From: Minisyncoccota bacterium | Lineage (GTDB): Bacteria; Patescibacteriota; Minisyncoccia; Phycocordibacterales; UBA6899 | Assembly (NCBI GenBank): GCA_035583355.1 | Contig: DATEZQ010000008.1 | Coordinates: 36,610-100,609 of the forward strand | Direction: 5' to 3' | Length of the DNA stretch: 64,000 nt | Part shown: positions 3,398 to 56,126 of the stretch, piece after piece | How positions within the stretch are numbered: the first letter of the stretch is position 1 | Layout: each line of letters starts with the position of its first letter | Made by a program: the position numbers and the translations under genes | The notes under the pieces: generated by a model | What the model saw: the letters and a program-made list of their open reading frames with translations, nothing else | Database searches by the model: none | Told to the model about the DNA's origin: nothing

Positions 3398-3491
3398 GTG
3401 AGCGACTCAGTGAAACTGAGGCGTGAGTTGAAGTGCGTGGCGGAGGCCACTCCTTATCGGACAAGACCGCCTGGCCCGCGATGCGGCGGTC

Positions 3492-5183
3492 TTACTGAAT
3501 CACCGTCTCCGTTTCAGTAACGATTGGCTTTTGCTTCCAGAACTTCTTATGTACTGCATCCCTAGTCTCCTTATACTCGGTATTATCAAGAATAGTAAAG
3601 AAGAACATTCCAACAATAACTGCAAGACCTCCGCTAATAAGACCCTGACCCAAAATACCGAGCAGTGTCTTTTGATCGATGTAGGTCACCGAAAACTGGA
3701 GCATGTAATATGCAACAGCACCCATGATCACTGCGACAGAGAAACTCTGCACAAAAGCGCGACGTATGCCAAGCCACACGTGATTCACAATCTTATGCAG
3801 CGCAACCAGCAACAAACTGACATTAATAATCATGCCAAGGGAATACGCGAGCGGCAACATCAGGACACTTGTCCCCTGCAATCCGTCAACACGAAGGATT
3901 GTCTCAATGAAATATCGGAATATCGGAGAATATCCAAAGAATGCGGTGAGGCCATATGCAAAAGCAATAATAAGTGCTCCTGAAAATGCATTGATGGTGA
4001 GTGGTACCTTCGAGTTGCCCGCGGCATAGAATGCACGAGTGAACAGCGAGACGAGTGACTGTGCGGCAACAGAGATTACGAAGAGCGCAAGTGCTGCTGC
4101 AACAAGTCGTGTCGCACTCCAATCAAAACGACCCGTACCTAGGACCACACGGACTATTTGTGCACGAAGCACAACAAAAAGCGCAGTAACAGGGAGCGAC
4201 CAAAAGATGATATGCCTTGCCGCACTTAAGAGATGCTCGCGGAAAAGATGATACTCCTCCTGGGCCCAGAATTTTGCAAATGTCGGAAATGCGGCAACAG
4301 AATAGCTGGAACCGATTATTGTGAACGTGATACTCTGCAGCGTCATGCCGAAAGTAAATATTGCTACACCACCCTCGACGTGTGACGCGATACCAATGAT
4401 GGCAATAGTTGCAAGATGTGAGGACGTGAGAGCAATTGTTCGAGGTATTGAAGTAAGAAACACGCGCTTTACTTCTTTCATGTGCCCAAACAAAAATCCC
4501 GGAACAAGCTTTTCGCGCACAAGCACAGGGAGCATAATAAGATCCTGAAGCAAAGCCCCACAGACCACACCCCACGCAAGACCATAGATTCCAAAATATG
4601 GATAGAGAAATATGATTCCAAAAATGATACCAAGGTTATAGACTGCAGGACTTATCGCATAGACAAAGAAGCGCTGCAATGACTGCGTCAGCGCACCGTA
4701 AAGATTTGAAAGACCCTGAAAGATTGGCGAGAGTAAAAGGATGCGTGCAACATTGATATTCACCGCCTGTTCCGCTGGGCTAAAACCAGGAACAAGCCAG
4801 GGAACGATCTGTGGCATGAAGACAAATGCGACACCACAAATAATAACAAAAGCTGATATAAATGCAGTGAACATTGCACTCATAAATTTCTTCAGCTCAC
4901 CATTTCCCTTTTTCGCATATTCTGCAATGAAGGGAATAAGTACGGTGATTGCTACCGCCGACCCCAGTGTGTCATAGAGAAAATCTGGCACTCGGAATGC
5001 AGAGTAATAGATATCGAGTTGTGTTCCTGCTCCGAAATGAGCAGCGAGTAGACGATCTCTAAAGAATCCAAGCAGTTGTGCAACGAGTGCCATCGAACCC
5101 AAAAGCAGCGCAGCCTCATGAAGACTGCCCCACTCTTTGTGCAATAGGTTAATTATTCTGCGTACCATATATGTTTTCCCCAA
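3492..5183 (-). CDS. murJ: Lipid II flippase MurJ (MviN)
   Basis: 563-aa polytopic membrane protein. The N-terminus LLGFFRDRLLAAHFGAGTQLDIYYSAFRVPDFLYDTLGSAV is typical MurJ/MviN. Confidence 0.9.
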   Translation of the reverse strand: MGKTYMVRRIINLLHKEWGSLHEAALLLGSMALVAQLLGFFRDRLLAAHFGAGTQLDIYYSAFRVPDFLYDTLGSAVAITVLIPFIAEYAKKGNGELKKFMSAMFTAFISAFVIICGVAFVFMPQIVPWLVPGFSPAEQAVNINVARILLLSPIFQGLSNLYGALTQSLQRFFVYAISPAVYNLGIIFGIIFLYPYFGIYGLAWGVVCGALLQDLIMLPVLVREKLVPGFLFGHMKEVKRVFLTSIPRTIALTSSHLATIAIIGIASHVEGGVAIFTFGMTLQSITFTIIGSSYSVAAFPTFAKFWAQEEYHLFREHLLSAARHIIFWSLPVTALFVVLRAQIVRVVLGTGRFDWSATRLVAAALALFVISVAAQSLVSLFTRAFYAAGNSKVPLTINAFSGALIIAFAYGLTAFFGYSPIFRYFIETILRVDGLQGTSVLMLPLAYSLGMIINVSLLLVALHKIVNHVWLGIRRAFVQSFSVAVIMGAVAYYMLQFSVTYIDQKTLLGILGQGLISGGLAVIVGMFFFTILDNTEYKETRDAVHKKFWKQKPIVTETETVIQ

Positions 5184-20627: not shown

Positions 20628-20716
20628 GGGAACCTCCCCTCATCACTTCTCTTCGAATTGTATCACAACAAACTTTGTATTAAAAAACATGAAGCGAGGC
20701 TTCATGTTTTTTAATA

Positions 20717-21490
20717 CTACTTAGCGATATCCTGAAGAACACATACTCCATGCCCCTCTGGCTTTACATCGCGATAAATTCGTTCAATGAGTCCATCAGG
20801 CCCGACGACGAATGTTGTACGCTTGTTGAACAAGCCACCCCAGACACCGCAAGCTTTTGCAAAGGCATGACCCTCGTCAACGAGTAGCGGATAAGTAATC
20901 CCTTCCTTCGCGATGAAATGTTCATGACTTTCCAGAGAATCAGGAGACACTCCAAAGACGCGCACGTTTTGAATACCAAACTCTCCGGCGAGCTTTGAAA
21001 ACTCATGAGCCTCTGTTGTGCATCCCGATGTTTCATCCTTCGGGTAAAAATACATGACATAGCGTGAGCCAAGCAAATCGGCATTGGTAGTAGTGCCCCC
21101 TTCGGTCGAAAGCAAAGCGAATGAAGGAAATACACTCCCCACGTCGAGTACGCCCGGCGTGAGTGGCTGTGCACTCGCGACAGATTCAGACATATGTTTT
21201 ATTTCTTCTTTGATAAGCGCGTTTGCAATCGTCGATTTCGCCTTCACGGTCTTCACTTTCTTAGGCGCAACTTTTTTCGCAGTGACCTTCTTCGCAACTG
21301 AAGCCTTTACAACTTTCGCCTTCTTGGCTGCGACTTTCTTTGCTGTGACTTTTTTCACTGCGGCAACCTTCTTCTTCGGAGCGGCCTTCTTCGCAGTAAT
21401 ATGTTTCGATGTGACACGCTCAACAACCAGTCGTGTAGGTGGCTGCTTTTTCTTTTCAACGTGTCGTGTGATAGTGAGTTTGATTGCCAT
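20717..21490 (-). CDS. bcp: Bcp-type peroxiredoxin (thiol peroxidase) with a ~100-aa N-terminal histone-H1-like Lys/Ala-rich extension
   Basis: C-terminal Prx motif YFYPKDETSGCTTEAHEF plus the rest of an AhpC/TSA fold. N-terminal AKKAAPKKKVAAVKKVTAKKVAAKKAKVVKASVAKKVTAKKVAPKKVKTVKAKS in the same frame with no stops. Confidence 0.8.
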   Translation of the reverse strand: MAIKLTITRHVEKKKQPPTRLVVERVTSKHITAKKAAPKKKVAAVKKVTAKKVAAKKAKVVKASVAKKVTAKKVAPKKVKTVKAKSTIANALIKEEIKHMSESVASAQPLTPGVLDVGSVFPSFALLSTEGGTTTNADLLGSRYVMYFYPKDETSGCTTEAHEFSKLAGEFGIQNVRVFGVSPDSLESHEHFIAKEGITYPLLVDEGHAFAKACGVWGGLFNKRTTFVVGPDGLIERIYRDVKPEGHGVCVLQDIAK

Positions 21491-24274: not shown

Positions 24275-24643
24275 GTGTATACTATTTCTATGATGAAACT
24301 ACTAGTGAAGTGGGCAACATTGACCGTTGCCATCTATATACTTGCCACATACACCCCCGCAATGACCATCGCTGAGCCGAAGGTTGCGGTATTTGCAGCG
24401 CTTGCACTTGGATTATTGAATACACTCGTGCGTCCTATTCTCAAGCTCTTCGCGCTTCCGATTACGCTACTCACATTCGGACTCTTCTCGATCATCATCA
24501 ATGGCCTCATGCTTATCTTCGTACCGAAGTTCGTTAATGGAGTCACCATCAATGGATTCTGGTGGGGTGTCGCAGGTGCTGCGATCATCAGCTTGATAAC
24601 CTCGATCATGAATCGACTCCTACTTGGATCTGAAGAAGCGTAA
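24275..24643 (+). CDS. Phage-holin-4-like / DUF360 small membrane protein
   Basis: Four hydrophobic helices with the pattern VRPILKLFALPITLLTFGLFSIIINGLML, typical of the holin family 4 (YqeZ-like) membrane proteins. Confidence 0.45.
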   Translation: MYTISMMKLLVKWATLTVAIYILATYTPAMTIAEPKVAVFAALALGLLNTLVRPILKLFALPITLLTFGLFSIIINGLMLIFVPKFVNGVTINGFWWGVAGAAIISLITSIMNRLLLGSEEA

Positions 24644-24651
24644 AAATATCA

Positions 24652-25536
24652 TCACTCCGCGAGAGTGATGTTATTTTTATGCTTCGCTAATATCCCCTCT
24701 TCAAGAAGTTCATCGATTGCCGCCTTCCCGTCATATGGAGTATCCGCGAAGAATGCTTCTGCAGCTTTTCTTGAAAGTGTTCCTTCTGCAACAAGTGCCT
24801 TAAGGAGCGCTCCTCGATAGGAGCGTTTCGAACCTTTGAATTTTGATTGTGGCTTCTTGTAGACGAAATCATCGACATCACCATGAAAATCGAACATAGG
24901 GCATGCATCACTATGACGCCTTGCTGTACATACCATCGCACCAAGATCGAGCATCGCATAATTCCATGCGCGTCCGCGACCCGTAGGAATCATCGCCTGT
25001 GCAAAATCAAAGAGCACTGCGTCGCTCGGAATATCGCCATCAAAGAATGAGCGTACAAGTATACGACGTAGATTCGTATCAATCATTGGGTAAGGCTCGT
25101 TCCAGGCGAATGCCATGATGGCAGCTGCCGTTGAGCGACCGATGCCAGGCAATGACTGCAACTTCGTAAAGTCACGAGGGAATTTTCCATCATGCTCACT
25201 AACTACTGCTTTCGCAGCTTGGTGCAAGTATTTCGCGCGGCGATTATATCCAAGACCGGACCAAAGACGAAGCACATCTCTTAGTGGTGCTCGCGCAAGC
25301 ATACTCACATCAGGAAAACGCAGAATGAATTCTGCAAACTTCGTGCGCACGCGATCCACCTGCGTCTGCTGCAACATAATCTCGGAAACAAGAATCCGGT
25401 AGGGATCGAGCATCACCTTCGTATCACGCTTCTTTGGCCTCCAATCCATCGGACGATATACGTTATTGTTCCACGCAAAGAGTATTTCATTGAATTCTTG
25501 GACACGCTTATTCACCTCCACAGCATAATCGTTCAT
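24652..25536 (-). CDS. HhH-GPD DNA glycosylase, MutY/Nth-like
   Basis: LDPYRILVSEIMLQQTQV plus the helix-hairpin-helix LPGIGRSTAAAIMAFAW and the catalytic-Asp region. C-terminal extension present. Confidence 0.75.
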   Translation of the reverse strand: MNDYAVEVNKRVQEFNEILFAWNNNVYRPMDWRPKKRDTKVMLDPYRILVSEIMLQQTQVDRVRTKFAEFILRFPDVSMLARAPLRDVLRLWSGLGYNRRAKYLHQAAKAVVSEHDGKFPRDFTKLQSLPGIGRSTAAAIMAFAWNEPYPMIDTNLRRILVRSFFDGDIPSDAVLFDFAQAMIPTGRGRAWNYAMLDLGAMVCTARRHSDACPMFDFHGDVDDFVYKKPQSKFKGSKRSYRGALLKALVAEGTLSRKAAEAFFADTPYDGKAAIDELLEEGILAKHKNNITLAE

Positions 25537-29135: not shown

Positions 29136-29215
29136 GTTACTATGCTTATGTATAGTATTATAACCCCTACTTGTGAAATGGCAAAGCAAAAGACTCCCCA
29201 AGGGGAGCCTTACTG

Positions 29216-30478
29216 CTACTCACCAAATATCATCGTGTAACGCTTTGCGCGAACGAATGAACGGAGAATGTCTTGCACTTCCTCAACCCTTACCTTTGCC
29301 AAATCAGCAAGCTCATCATCATAGGTGCGTACACGTCCGTAACGCTCAACGTCACCTGATGCACCCGAGACGATATCCCCAATATTTGGGTCCCTTATCT
29401 TGAAACGATTGATCGATCGTCTGATGTGTCGCTCGATCGAAGTAACATCATTGATGGCCGTTTCCACACAAACATCCACAACGTCTTCAAGCTCACCGAG
29501 GTGCTCCCAGGGGAAATCGATATCAACGGCAATCTCGTGCGCCTCAGGGAACCAGCCGACGTTTGTACTCACGCTATACGACCAACCACGCTCCTCACGA
29601 ATCTCTTTGTAGAGTGCATCACTCAATACATTGAGTGCGCGACTGACCGCGACATCAGATATCGTGCCAGGAAATGTCTGACAAAGAAGGACTGACGCCT
29701 GATGTGGCTTCTCCTTATAGATTTCTGGCCAAGGAATATTGTAATGACGCTCATCATCAGGATTTATTTCCTTAAGTGCAAGCGGGGTCGGAATTCGCTC
29801 CCCTTCCTTTACTACAGCAAATTTACTAGACTCCAACGCTTGTACAAATTCATCAAGCGTCATTCCTCCTGAAGCGACGATGCTGATATTCTTCGGAGTA
29901 TAGTTCTTACGATAGAATTCGCGCAACATCTCATGGGTCATCGAGGAGATGGATGAAGCCCGCCCAAGTGGTCGCAAGTAGTGCCCAAGACGATGTTCAC
30001 CGAAGAAGTGTTTGCGGCGACGCAAAAGCAAGTCTACTGATATTGGAACCGGGAAACGCTCCTGATACTCACCCATAATAATCTTCCGCTCTCTCTCAAC
30101 AAAATTATCGAGTGTTGACGTGAGAAGCATTTCACCGAAAAAGTTAAGCCCGAATGCAAGATTATCATTCTCGAGCGGCACGCCGAAGGAGTAACTTGTG
30201 CTCTCATAGCTTGTCGAACCAAAGCGCGCGTAACCACCAATCTCATCGAAGTGCTCCTCGGCCTCCTGGTGGGTCTTCCCTGCAACATTGTGACTGACGA
30301 GGTGTTCGACAAAGTGGGCAGTACCCTCGGAGCCGAGTACATCGTCTTTAGCTCCTGCGTGCACGAGCACCTTCAACTTAATCCATGGATGATTCACTTC
30401 AGAGAAGAAGACGGTGAGACCGTTTGAAAGCGTTGCTTTCAGGAAGGTTGTATAAGGGTCGGAAATTGGATGGGTCAT
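29216..30478 (-). CDS. M16 family zinc peptidase (pitrilysin-like)
   Basis: Inverted zinc motif HFVEH (HxxEH), a downstream Glu, and a two-domain M16 architecture. Confidence 0.85.
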   Translation of the reverse strand: MTHPISDPYTTFLKATLSNGLTVFFSEVNHPWIKLKVLVHAGAKDDVLGSEGTAHFVEHLVSHNVAGKTHQEAEEHFDEIGGYARFGSTSYESTSYSFGVPLENDNLAFGLNFFGEMLLTSTLDNFVERERKIIMGEYQERFPVPISVDLLLRRRKHFFGEHRLGHYLRPLGRASSISSMTHEMLREFYRKNYTPKNISIVASGGMTLDEFVQALESSKFAVVKEGERIPTPLALKEINPDDERHYNIPWPEIYKEKPHQASVLLCQTFPGTISDVAVSRALNVLSDALYKEIREERGWSYSVSTNVGWFPEAHEIAVDIDFPWEHLGELEDVVDVCVETAINDVTSIERHIRRSINRFKIRDPNIGDIVSGASGDVERYGRVRTYDDELADLAKVRVEEVQDILRSFVRAKRYTMIFGE

Positions 30479-30492
30479 TATAGTTTATTGTA

Positions 30493-30690
30493 GCATAATG
30501 GCGCACCCTAAAGGGGCCCGCACCATTATGCTTATTAGGAACCCACGGCTCCTAACGCTTTCTTTGAATACAAAGAAAGCTGTGTTCCTCCACGGGGAAC
30601 CTCCCCGTTCCCCGGCCCCTTCGACACTCACCTTCTCGCTCGGAAGCGAGAAGGCACTAGCATGGTAATATTAGTGCTCGTTTTTCTAAA
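30493..30690 (+). repeat. Structured intergenic element R, copy 1 (possible small RNA; ends in a plus-strand terminator)
   Basis: gcgcaccctaaaggggcccgcacc … perfect hairpin gctttctttgaatacaaagaaagc … tcctccacggggaacctccccgttccccggccccttcgac … hairpin ccttctcgctcggaagcgagaagg … gcactagcatggtaatattagtgc + tcgttttt. The head and core segments recur at 31262-31545. Confidence 0.5.
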
Positions 30691-30721
30691 ATGAAAATGA
30701 TAAAGCAAATACGCTTATAAC

Positions 30722-30750
30722 AATAAAACCTGCAAATGCAGGTTTTTTGT
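30722..30750. terminator. Bidirectional rho-independent terminator
   Basis: aaaacctgcaaatgcaggtttttt. Confidence 0.6.
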
Positions 30751-31172: not shown

Positions 31173-31261
31173 GTATTTTATTTTTATTGTTATTTTCCCA
31201 AAGTTTCGATTTCAATGATTTTTAGAACTTACATATTATACAGGAAAGATAGGAGAATCTC

Positions 31262-31545
31262 ACGTCGCGATGCGGCGCACCCTAAAGGGGCCCACACCGC
31301 CCTGCTCCTCGATTTCATTACATGAACGGTACACCTTTTGGATCTTTTATATCGAAGACTCACAAAAGTCCTCAAAAGGTCTTGCACTCTCGCTCCCATA
31401 AGCATGGGACCCATGAGCGAGAGCTCACCCACGGTTCTCGACGGAAACCCTTTCAGTCAAAAGGGGTTCCTGCTTTCCTACACGGGGAACCTCCCCGTTC
31501 CCCGACCCCCTCGACGTTCGAATCCCCGCGACTCCGCAATACAAA
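31262..31545 (+). repeat. Structured intergenic element R, copy 2
   Basis: Shares gcgcaccctaaaggggccc(a)cacc and tcct(a)cacggggaacctccccgttccccg(a)cccc(c)tcgac with copy 1. Several internal hairpins (ctctcgct…agcgagag; ccataagcatgg). Its 3' end runs into an inverted copy of the tRNA-Ser 3' half. Confidence 0.5.
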
Positions 31546-31600
31546 AAAAGAACAAGTACTCTTGCTCTTTTTTGTATTGCGGAGTCGCGGGGATTCGAAC
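31516..31600. repeat. Near-perfect ~40-bp-arm palindrome: inverted duplication of the tRNA-Ser 3' end plus ~20 nt of flank
   Basis: gttcgaatccccgcgactccgcaatacaaaaaaagaacaagtac | tcttgctcttttttgtattgcggagtcgcggggattcgaac. Confidence 0.7.
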
Positions 31601-31666
31601 CCCGGATGGCTGTTACACCATACTCACTTTCCAGGCGAGCGCACTAGACCACTATGCGACGACTCC
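31580..31666 (-). tRNA. tRNA-Ser (anticodon GGA), class II with a long variable arm
   Basis: Minus strand: GGAGTCG TC GCA TAGTGGTCTAG TGC G CTCGC CTGGAAA GTGAG [long variable arm ATGG…CCAT] CGGGG TTCGAAT CCCCG CGACTCC G. 7-bp acceptor stem, T-loop TTCGAAT, anticodon loop CU-GGA-AA. Confidence 0.85.
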
Positions 31667-31781
31667 GTTAATATTATGCCAAGGTAAGGTCTTTAGTCTT
31701 CATGACGTATCGCGATTGTACTATCTTTCGCGAATTTAGCAAAGATGGAATATGTTCTAGTGGGTTATAATATATATATAT

Positions 31782-55305: not shown

Positions 55306-55328
55306 TAAAAAACGGCAATTGCCGTTTT

Positions 55329-56126
55329 TTACTGGAGCGGGAATGGAAGTGTAATGGTCGGCATACCAATGGCATGTGGCCCAACCTGATAGTCGCTGAA
55401 ATAAAATGTGATTCTATTTCCGTGAATAGTGAAATTTTCGAAATTCTCGTACTTTGCCCCCGCACCATCATTAATCCACTGAATTTCAACAGGAGAAAGC
55501 ACTGACTCATCCAAAGTACGCTTGCGCTCCTCAATAAGTAATGCGATAGCATCAGCCGAAAGCTTTTCAAGAGTACTTATGTCGCCACCAACGATATCAT
55601 CAATCGCAACTACACGATGTTGCTTCAGGTCATAGTTAAATGTATGCACACCGCCTGACCCATGCGCACCCCCGCTAAATTCATCGTATTCGACAAGAAC
55701 ACTAACTCTTTCCGCATCGAATTGCATAAGTGACCATGTCGCATGATAAGGAAAGAGCTCCGCTTGAGATGGGGTATCAGAAATACTCCCTCTTGGATCG
55801 GCAGTTTCCGCTCTCGCCTTCCAGTTCTCCATAGAGGCTTTATCGTGTTCCTTTATACCCTCTGTTATCAGTGTTGCTATTGGAGCGTTAAGCACCTCCA
55901 GCTCACCCATAAATTGCGGATAATCAACCTCTGTGCGTGTATACGTCCCAACATGATGATCCGAAACATTAAAAACGAGTGGTGTGGTTGTAGCAATACT
56001 AAGTGGAGTAGTAATAGTAGGAGCTTCAGCTTTTGGCGTCACAGCAAAAAACTCAAAAATGAAAAATGTTCCTACAAAAACGATAAATAGGAGGGAAAGA
56101 TAAATCGGAATATGCTGCTTATTCAT
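55329..56126 (-). CDS. DUF4163/DUF3298 (RsiV/PdaC-like) domain protein
   Basis: N-terminal TM, the …VDYPQF… motif, and a two-domain beta-rich architecture characteristic of DUF4163+DUF3298. Confidence 0.6.
   Translation of the reverse strand: MNKQHIPIYLSLLFIVFVGTFFIFEFFAVTPKAEAPTITTPLSIATTTPLVFNVSDHHVGTYTRTEVDYPQFMGELEVLNAPIATLITEGIKEHDKASMENWKARAETADPRGSISDTPSQAELFPYHATWSLMQFDAERVSVLVEYDEFSGGAHGSGGVHTFNYDLKQHRVVAIDDIVGGDISTLEKLSADAIALLIEERKRTLDESVLSPVEIQWINDGAGAKYENFENFTIHGNRITFYFSDYQVGPHAIGMPTITLPFPLQ

Follow-up and report, generated by a model that had tools for sequence, protein, structure and literature searches.

A terminator-like palindrome that mirrors the 3' end of tRNA-Ser(GGA) in a Paceibacterota clade

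The stretch of DNA analyzed here (the window; 64,000 nucleotides from a contig of a Minisyncoccota bacterium) contains a tRNA-Ser gene whose 3' end, together with part of its flank, is repeated in mirror image immediately beside it. The 3' ends of tRNA genes are classic attachment sites. This locus therefore raises the question of whether the palindrome is a recombination scar with a breakpoint in the tRNA or a programmed hairpin acting in termination or processing, both of which were proposed in an earlier note on this DNA, or whether it arose and is kept in another way. We approach this question through the anatomy of the palindrome, its counterparts in related genomes, and the conserved element that adjoins it, and then weigh the possible explanations.

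Anatomy of the tRNA gene and the palindrome

The gene is a class II tRNA-Ser(GGA) on the minus strand at positions 31580-31666, as the earlier note had read it. The Rfam tRNA model (RF00005) matches this interval with 54.9 bits against a gathering score of 29, and ARAGORN, which places the gene at 31579-31666 on the minus strand, finds it to be the sole tRNA gene in the window. CCA is absent from the gene, and the trailer begins with CAA. Upstream of the tRNA, the promoter scan identifies a promoter-like site (TTGCTA-16-TACAAT; 31715-31742, minus strand), and the block GATTGTACTATCTTT..GAATTTAGCAAA at this site is conserved in L005, one of the related loci described below.

The inverted copy of the tRNA 3' end and its flank, which the same note had reported with arms of ~40 bp and a center near 31557, is also borne out, its arm length, coordinates, and center (31557-31558) all being correct. 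The palindrome spans 85 bp (31516-31600) and comprises tRNA positions 53-73, the 3' trailer, and an inverted copy of both, with perfect arms of 33 nt and ~41 bp paired in all. The inverted-repeat search returns a 33-nt pair with 100% complementarity (31516-31548 / 31568-31600) plus an inner 13-nt pair. Read in the tRNA sense, 41 of 42 positions are paired, with one bulged U (A on the other strand) and one G.U, the latter being the single non-Watson-Crick position and a G.U in the tRNA-sense RNA only (A.C otherwise). The tRNA-derived copy lies 43 nt from the original, and 19 nt separate the perfect 33-nt arms. The tRNA-derived 21-mer GTTCGAATCCCCGCGACTCCG occurs exactly twice in the window, once per strand, and 0 times in 100 shuffles. 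No other short-range inverted repeat in the 64 kb is as long, the next perfect one having 19-nt arms.

The proximal arm (31561-31600, minus strand) begins within the gene, with tRNA positions 53-73 (31580-31600, minus strand; GUUCGAAUCCCCGCGACUCCG in the tRNA sense, 31600-31580), i.e., G53, the T-loop, the 3' strands of the T-stem and acceptor stem, and the discriminator, and continues through the trailer CAAUAC-A6-GAGCAAG (31561-31579). A loop of 4 nt at the palindrome center (31557-31560; AGUA in the tRNA sense) leads into the distal arm (31516-31556, minus strand), which consists of CUUGUUC-U7-GUAUUG (31537-31556) followed by the antisense copy of tRNA positions 53-73 (31516-31536). This copy is of the GCGGAGUCGCGGGGAUUCGAAC type and reads CGGAGUCGCGGGGAUUCGAAC in the tRNA sense, its last base being 31516. 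We considered and rejected a plus-strand tRNA-like element or tRNA pseudogene: with G53 as its first position, the copy is missing both 5' strands, that of the T-stem and that of the acceptor stem, and Rfam and ARAGORN match the real gene only. A tmRNA on the plus strand is not found by ARAGORN either. Rfam searches at the gathering threshold and with E up to 10 return tRNA only, and sub-threshold matches (miRNA, Hsp90_CRE, tmRNA_permuted, and others) merely reflect the long hairpin.

The inner part of the palindrome resembles an intrinsic terminator in its anatomy. This module (31543-31573, minus strand) begins in the trailer just past the discriminator, on the tRNA strand, and combines A6 (31568-31573), a stem of 7 bp including one G.U (31561-31567 / 31550-31556), and U7 (31543-31549), so that its core reads GAGCAAG-AGUA-CUUGUUC and then U7. 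It resembles the symmetric, bidirectional A-tract/hairpin/T-tract terminators in its A6, 7-bp stem, 4-nt loop, U7, and position just past a gene end; as in intrinsic terminators, changes in one stem arm are compensated in the other between species. The same A-tract/stem/T-tract design recurs in the genome's other terminator-like palindromes, with arms of 13-23 nt (e.g., 20677-20717, 24635-24685, 30725-30746, and 55306-55331), and the cupredoxin terminator displays ordinary compensatory change between lineages. The core stem is weak (-6.1 kcal/mol; -12.3 kcal/mol with the A:U extension), and the core is not listed by the consensus terminator scan, perhaps because the stem that the scan builds runs on into the long palindrome, with no T-run at its end. 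In view of this weak stem and the missing call, we infer from the anatomy that the core is probably the factor-independent terminator of tRNA-Ser(GGA), with termination at U7.

What sets the palindrome apart from intrinsic terminators is that pairing runs 27 bp past the U-tract and into tRNA positions 53-73, placing these outer 27 bp downstream of the U-tract. The ~41-bp stem ends at 31516, after which GUCGAGGGGG follows, and it encloses the U7 run. Transcription that stops at U7 would never extend the tRNA transcript into the distal tRNA-derived arm. The usual intrinsic-terminator stem measures 7-9 bp (PMC10325885), against ~41 bp in the palindrome. TerR of plasmid pLS20, a long-stem, antitermination-resistant terminator with a 15-bp stem and then a U-tract (PMC10325885), shares with our locus an unusually long stem at the end of a transcription unit. 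In architecture, however, the two differ, as the U-tract here lies inside the stem rather than directly after a stem of at least 14 bp. With U7 internal and GUCGAGGGGG after the full stem, termination at U7 cannot involve the outer arm, and the palindrome is not of the TerR kind.

Concerted arms in four lineages

A genome collection with one genome per species, scanned with the tRNA 3' 22-mer GGTTCGAATCCCCGCGACTCCG, contained one other genome with a match, L001 (MAG SKS1.bin43, on a 213-kb contig; L015 is the same genome over a wider range). In the metagenome collection, which apparently is without this clade, neither the tRNA-body 22-mer nor the core of the neighboring element had a match. 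Loci beyond L001 were reached via homologues of the flanking proteins, and among them are L002 (Logan assembly of run DRR125231), L005 (JGI metagenome 3300038795), and L016, a near-identical strain of L001/L015. The comparison comprises four lineages, namely the window, L015 (L001), L002, and L005. Their proteins share 54-92% identity, and the tree is approximately star-shaped, with the window and L015 forming one of the most distant pairs (56% identity for MerR and 54% for p152). The tRNA-Ser(GGA) sequence is identical in the window, L001/L015, and L002; L005 has G-C in place of C-G at one T-stem pair. Gene order on either side of the tRNA is common to the window, L002, and L015, with nothing inserted at the tRNA; the surrounding genes encode, among others, a histidine kinase, a response regulator, an M16 peptidase, a cupredoxin, a hemerythrin, a MerR/TipAS regulator, an MFS transporter, Obg, and NAD synthase. 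The cupredoxin next to the tRNA matches, at 100% identity, a protein encoded on a 105,794-nt contig of a 'Candidatus Paceibacterota bacterium' MAG, which places the source of the window among the CPR/Patescibacteria. The distant cupredoxin loci L006-L013 have no tRNA, indicating that this gene order is lost beyond the clade.

In all four lineages, the base following the discriminator opens a hairpin whose left flank is A-rich and whose right flank is U5-U7, and an antisense copy of the tRNA 3' end comes next, terminating after GTTCGAA. This common copy boundary implies that one ancestral event made the copy. The arms were compared lineage by lineage; MAFFT with RNAalifold on the four hairpins lost the trailer register. 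The inner stems are unrelated in sequence, i.e., GAGCAAG (window), UGAACAAG (L015), CCGCAGAAGG (L002), and UCUGC (L005), and all are paired, with energies in the relatives of -7.9 (L015), -6.2 (L005), and -17.3 kcal/mol (L002). The loops are highly diverged (AGUA in the window; AAUG, CAAAGC, and GCUA in the others). Within a lineage, the trailer arms are 95-100% complementary (19/20, 21/21, 17/17 with a 3-nt U bulge, and 19/19 with 3 gap columns), whereas between lineages only 10/19 to 18/21 positions are identical (about 50-85%), and where the window differs from L015, the opposite arm shows the mirror-image difference (CAATAC/GTATTG versus CAAAAAC/GTTTTTG, and others). The high match within lineages, the low match between them, and the mirrored changes together indicate that the arms evolve in concert.

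The tRNA-derived part behaves differently among the lineages. Its 21-22 nt are perfect in the window and in L015, where the whole 42-bp arms are perfect, and carry 3 differences in L002 and 5 in L005. The perfect or decayed state of the copy does not track the (weak) phylogeny. Perfection in a distant pair, alongside decay in the two others, suggests that it is actively kept in some lineages and lost in others. The outer arms are purely Watson-Crick, with no G.U at ~18 wobble-tolerant positions across the window and L015. The proposal of a programmed hairpin for termination or processing fares well for the core, where A6, stem, and U7 lie just past the discriminator in 4/4 lineages and the arms covary. 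For the outer, tRNA-derived part, which is downstream of the U-tract and decayed in 2/4 lineages, a function is conjectural.

A further observation concerns the terminator at 24635-24685 (L001 ~2140-2190). Its left flank in the window, GAAGCGT, is complementary to the right flank ATGCTTCGC; the right flank is conserved in both genomes, and the complementarity is absent in L001. A flank has thus turned complementary to its conserved opposite flank, suggesting that outward palindrome growth also occurs elsewhere in this genome.

The conserved element next to the distal arm

In the window, the distal arm abuts a conserved, hairpin-rich non-coding element with no Rfam match (copy 1, long form; 31252-31515, minus strand). 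The element is found in relatives at L001 7413-7650 and L005 271-346. Copy 1 is ~87% identical to the L001 counterpart and, over the ~130-nt middle of the element, the window and L001 are ~95% identical, against only 70-80% for the neighboring genes. The core reads GUCGARGGGGYCGGGGAACGGGGAGGUUCCCCGUG...CCGUGGGU, with the 3' hairpin GGUGYGGGCCCCUUUAGGGUGCGCC, and G.U-only pairs together with one compensatory change (U-A to C-G) favor the minus strand. A small protein was considered and rejected: nearly all differences between the window and L001 in the 67-aa ORF (31229-31432) alter the encoded amino acid, and L001 has a truncated version of this ORF. As this is the only ORF of the element and its base changes alter the amino acids, the element is not protein-coding. 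In L005, the element has its own promoter-like sequence and 5' hairpin.

Copy 1 lies upstream of the cupredoxin gene. A second, short copy (30497-30625, minus strand) lies upstream of the gene for the M16 peptidase. In front of it, where copy 1 has the tRNA palindrome, is an unrelated hairpin of 10 bp (30631-30654). A covariance model of the element detected no further copies in 142 kb (window and loci). The 1.5-kb segment with the M16 peptidase gene and the short copy (29190-30702) is absent from L001/L015 and L005 and present in L002, L003, and L004, the latter two having an extra HAD hydrolase gene; it constitutes a presence/absence polymorphism beside a repeated element. In addition, three lineages share a 23-nt motif, GGAGAATCTCACGTCGCGATGCG, without a single difference (positions 31252-31274 of the window, plus strand; L001 7252-7274; L015 2687-2709; L003 116-138, minus strand). 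The motif contains the palindrome TCGCGA, overlaps the predicted -35 of the cupredoxin promoter (GTGAGA-17-TATAAT), and may be an operator site.

Explanations for the mirrored arm

The explanation that we favor, and to which we assign roughly even confidence, is that an ancient inverted duplication lengthened the terminator hairpin of the tRNA and that templated correction keeps the arms matched, with the tRNA as master. The core (A6, 7-bp stem, 4-nt loop, U7) would be the part that stops transcription. In the ancestor of this Paceibacterota clade, an inverted duplication, most likely originating from a replication template switch at the hairpin, would have extended the distal arm so as to mirror the trailer and the last 21 nt of the tRNA. 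Selection on the tRNA would fix the tRNA arm, and the free arm would be kept identical by intra-palindrome templated correction, either by quasipalindrome template switching or by gene conversion; within the trailer, changes could be copied from either arm to the other. In L002 and L005, an indel would have broken the register, halting the correction and allowing the tRNA-derived copy to decay. The tRNA-derived extension would then be a by-product, dispensable for the tRNA, and neither an attachment site nor an invertible switch.

Purely Watson-Crick outer arms are what DNA-level copying is expected to produce. Quasipalindrome template switching is a mutational mechanism in E. coli and yeast (PMC7202029, PMC8604942), and switching between short inverted-repeat arms is a documented cause of arm homogenization (PMC8604942, PMC7202029). 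Our locus is similar in its close inverted repeat, its mirrored multi-nucleotide changes, and its perfect Watson-Crick arms; it differs from the E. coli and yeast cases in that the process is inferred here on the time scale of species, and in that the master arm, under selection, is a tRNA gene. The components, i.e., an intrinsic terminator and quasipalindrome homogenization, are known, and full-text literature searches yielded no precedent for their combination and no direct precedent for a tRNA-derived terminator arm. Two features weigh against the favored explanation. In both perfect-arm lineages the distal arm abuts the same conserved element, and the two decayed lineages are without that junction, a correlation (among four lineages only) that is not predicted by a neutral model. 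The perfection of 21-22 nt in two deep lineages could equally reflect selection on the long helix.

These features bear on the explanation that we rank next, a possible but clearly less probable one, namely that the long helix functions in read-through RNA. A leaky inner terminator would allow the distal arm to capture the 3' half of the tRNA in a ~41-bp duplex, which could serve as a substrate for an RNase III-type enzyme, so that the tRNA transcript is separated or insulated from the element and cupredoxin gene downstream, or as a 5' hairpin of the element. The predicted fold of a read-through transcript is the long hairpin (-90.4 kcal/mol, compared with ~-54 kcal/mol for the cloverleaf at -35.8 plus a trailer-only hairpin at -18.6), and from these energies read-through molecules would lose the tRNA fold and present the ~41-bp duplex. 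The perfect-arm lineages have weak inner stems (-6.1 and -7.9), in contrast to L002 with its decayed outer arm and strong inner stem (-17.3). Moreover, the conserved element follows the distal arm directly in the window and L015, with no promoter-like site in between, and at copy 2 of the window and in L005 an unrelated 10-bp hairpin with a preceding promoter-like sequence takes the distal arm's position. However, such a duplex would destroy the tRNA in each read-through molecule, the extension is decayed in two lineages that have kept the tRNA, and the outer arms carry no G.U substitutions. In L005, the inner stem is also weak (-6.2), yet the outer arm has decayed, and downstream of the element lies a conserved extended -10 promoter that belongs to the cupredoxin gene. 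Because of the tRNA destruction, the separate cupredoxin promoter, and the combination of a weak stem with a decayed arm in L005, we prefer an extension that is a by-product of the duplication over a functional RNA helix.

A more specific form of the RNA-level reading appears doubtful. In this form, the mirror copy would be a programmed antisense 'clamp' that draws the 3' half of tRNA-Ser into the 41-bp duplex, and an RNase III-type cut would create the 5' hairpin end of an undescribed, structured downstream CPR RNA, thereby coupling its expression to, or insulating it from, transcription of the tRNA.

Less likely again is a passive relic, in which a tRNA gene duplicated tail to tail would have lost most of one copy to deletion, and what is left of that copy would simply not yet have decayed in two lineages, with no maintenance. 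The copy boundary common to all lineages, pointing to one ancestral event, and the visible decay in L002 and L005 are compatible with it. Flanking non-coding sequence, though, is ~83% identical between the window and L001 (tRNA excluded), at which rate 22 positions unchanged in both lineages would have a probability of ~0.02, and mirrored lineage-specific trailer changes cannot be produced by passive retention.

We consider it very improbable that the palindrome is a site-specific recombination scar, be it the attachment site of a tRNA-targeting integrase or an invertase switch whose breakpoint lies in the 3' end of the tRNA. The locus has been rearranged more than once, as indicated by L005, in which the whole tRNA module is inverted relative to the cupredoxin gene, and by L002 and L015, where 14 nt of the tRNA 5' end recur in direct orientation 195 nt upstream of the gene. 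As with attL/attR sites at tRNA genes, the 3' part of the tRNA is duplicated beside the gene. Unlike in those sites, the repeat is inverted, only the terminator loop of 4 nt lies between the copies, and no direct repeat bounds an island; the conserved gene order on both sides of the tRNA argues that there is no island. The L005 inversion has its breakpoints outside the repeat. Pfam scans of 20 ORFs between 20.7 and 45.9 kb revealed no integrase, recombinase, invertase, or reverse transcriptase, the gene tables of L002 and L015 list no integrase, recombinase, invertase, or reverse transcriptase, and the 22-mer GGTTCGAATCCCCGCGACTCCG has no match in 2.9 million viral contigs. The inversion with a breakpoint in the tRNA that the earlier note had entertained, and likewise an integrase event, thus finds no support, given the conserved gene order, the inverted repeat with its 4-nt loop, and the absence of a recombinase among the ORFs scanned at 20.7-45.9 kb. 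Two related candidates were rejected. An invertible switch would have a loop of only 4 nt (19 nt between perfect arms), and no invertase was found among the scanned ORFs; for a retroelement primer-binding site, which the distal arm recalls in being complementary to the tRNA 3' end, no reverse transcriptase was found among these ORFs, and the arm reads UUG where the mature CCA end would need UGG.

The rearrangements have features of their own. In L005 (1-471, compared with L015 2565-3240), the inverted module comprises the promoter, the tRNA, the terminator palindrome, and the decayed fragment, and the contig ends 30 nt past this fragment. The first 14 nt of the tRNA (GGAGTCGTCGCATA) are repeated directly, exactly 195 nt upstream, in L002 (2344-2357, 2539-2552), L015 (3418-3431, 3223-3236), and L016 (343-356, 148-161). 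These repeats bracket a structured insert of 181 nt (AGACCGCCGCAU...GGCGGUCUUGCCCGAUAAGG...) whose end, adjoining the tRNA, is the -10-like TAATAT. Neither the window nor L005 carries the insert at its tRNA locus; part of it recurs, with 79.7% identity, at window positions 3421-3494, and the insert could be a small mobile or duplicated element.

A role of the palindrome as DNA, i.e., as a cruciform or the binding site of a dimeric protein, is one to which we give hardly any weight. The arms are perfectly Watson-Crick with no G.U, and a perfect 85-bp palindrome could extrude as a cruciform; against this, no candidate binding protein is known, the inner sequence is wholly replaced between lineages, so that outside the tRNA part there is no conserved recognition sequence, and the GC skew does not change at the palindrome. 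Finally, an assembly artefact, i.e., a fold-back chimera at the hairpin, has a negligible chance of being the explanation, given that contigs of 105 kb, 213 kb, and 23 kb, produced by different projects with different assemblers, contain the structure in their interior and that its copies are diverged and in two cases partly decayed. In favor of an artefact, the start of the L016 contig falls within the palindrome, where its mirror image of the tRNA extends 8 nt beyond that of the near-identical L015, and several short contigs end near the locus (L003, L004, L014, and L017, within a few hundred bases). In L016 itself (1-85; DAHVZP010000016.1), the mirror of the tRNA continues (ATCCGGGG...) where L015 reads CTTCGACG, and this extension is probably a fold-back artefact at the contig end.

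The palindrome is a tidy curiosity, neither a mobile-element scar nor a new kind of system. Fragments of tRNA beside tRNA genes are usually taken as integration scars in annotation, and here that would be the wrong reading. In practical terms, one public assembly (L016) has a contig end at the palindrome, together with what looks like a fold-back extension. If the RNA-level reading were true, the locus would represent a new way of linking tRNA transcription to a neighboring regulatory RNA in an uncultured phylum. On the favored explanation, it would provide a clean natural case of a terminator palindrome whose outward growth has taken in part of a functional RNA gene, with arms matched across diverged genomes and the tRNA as a fixed template, and would bear on how palindromes arise and persist in small CPR genomes.
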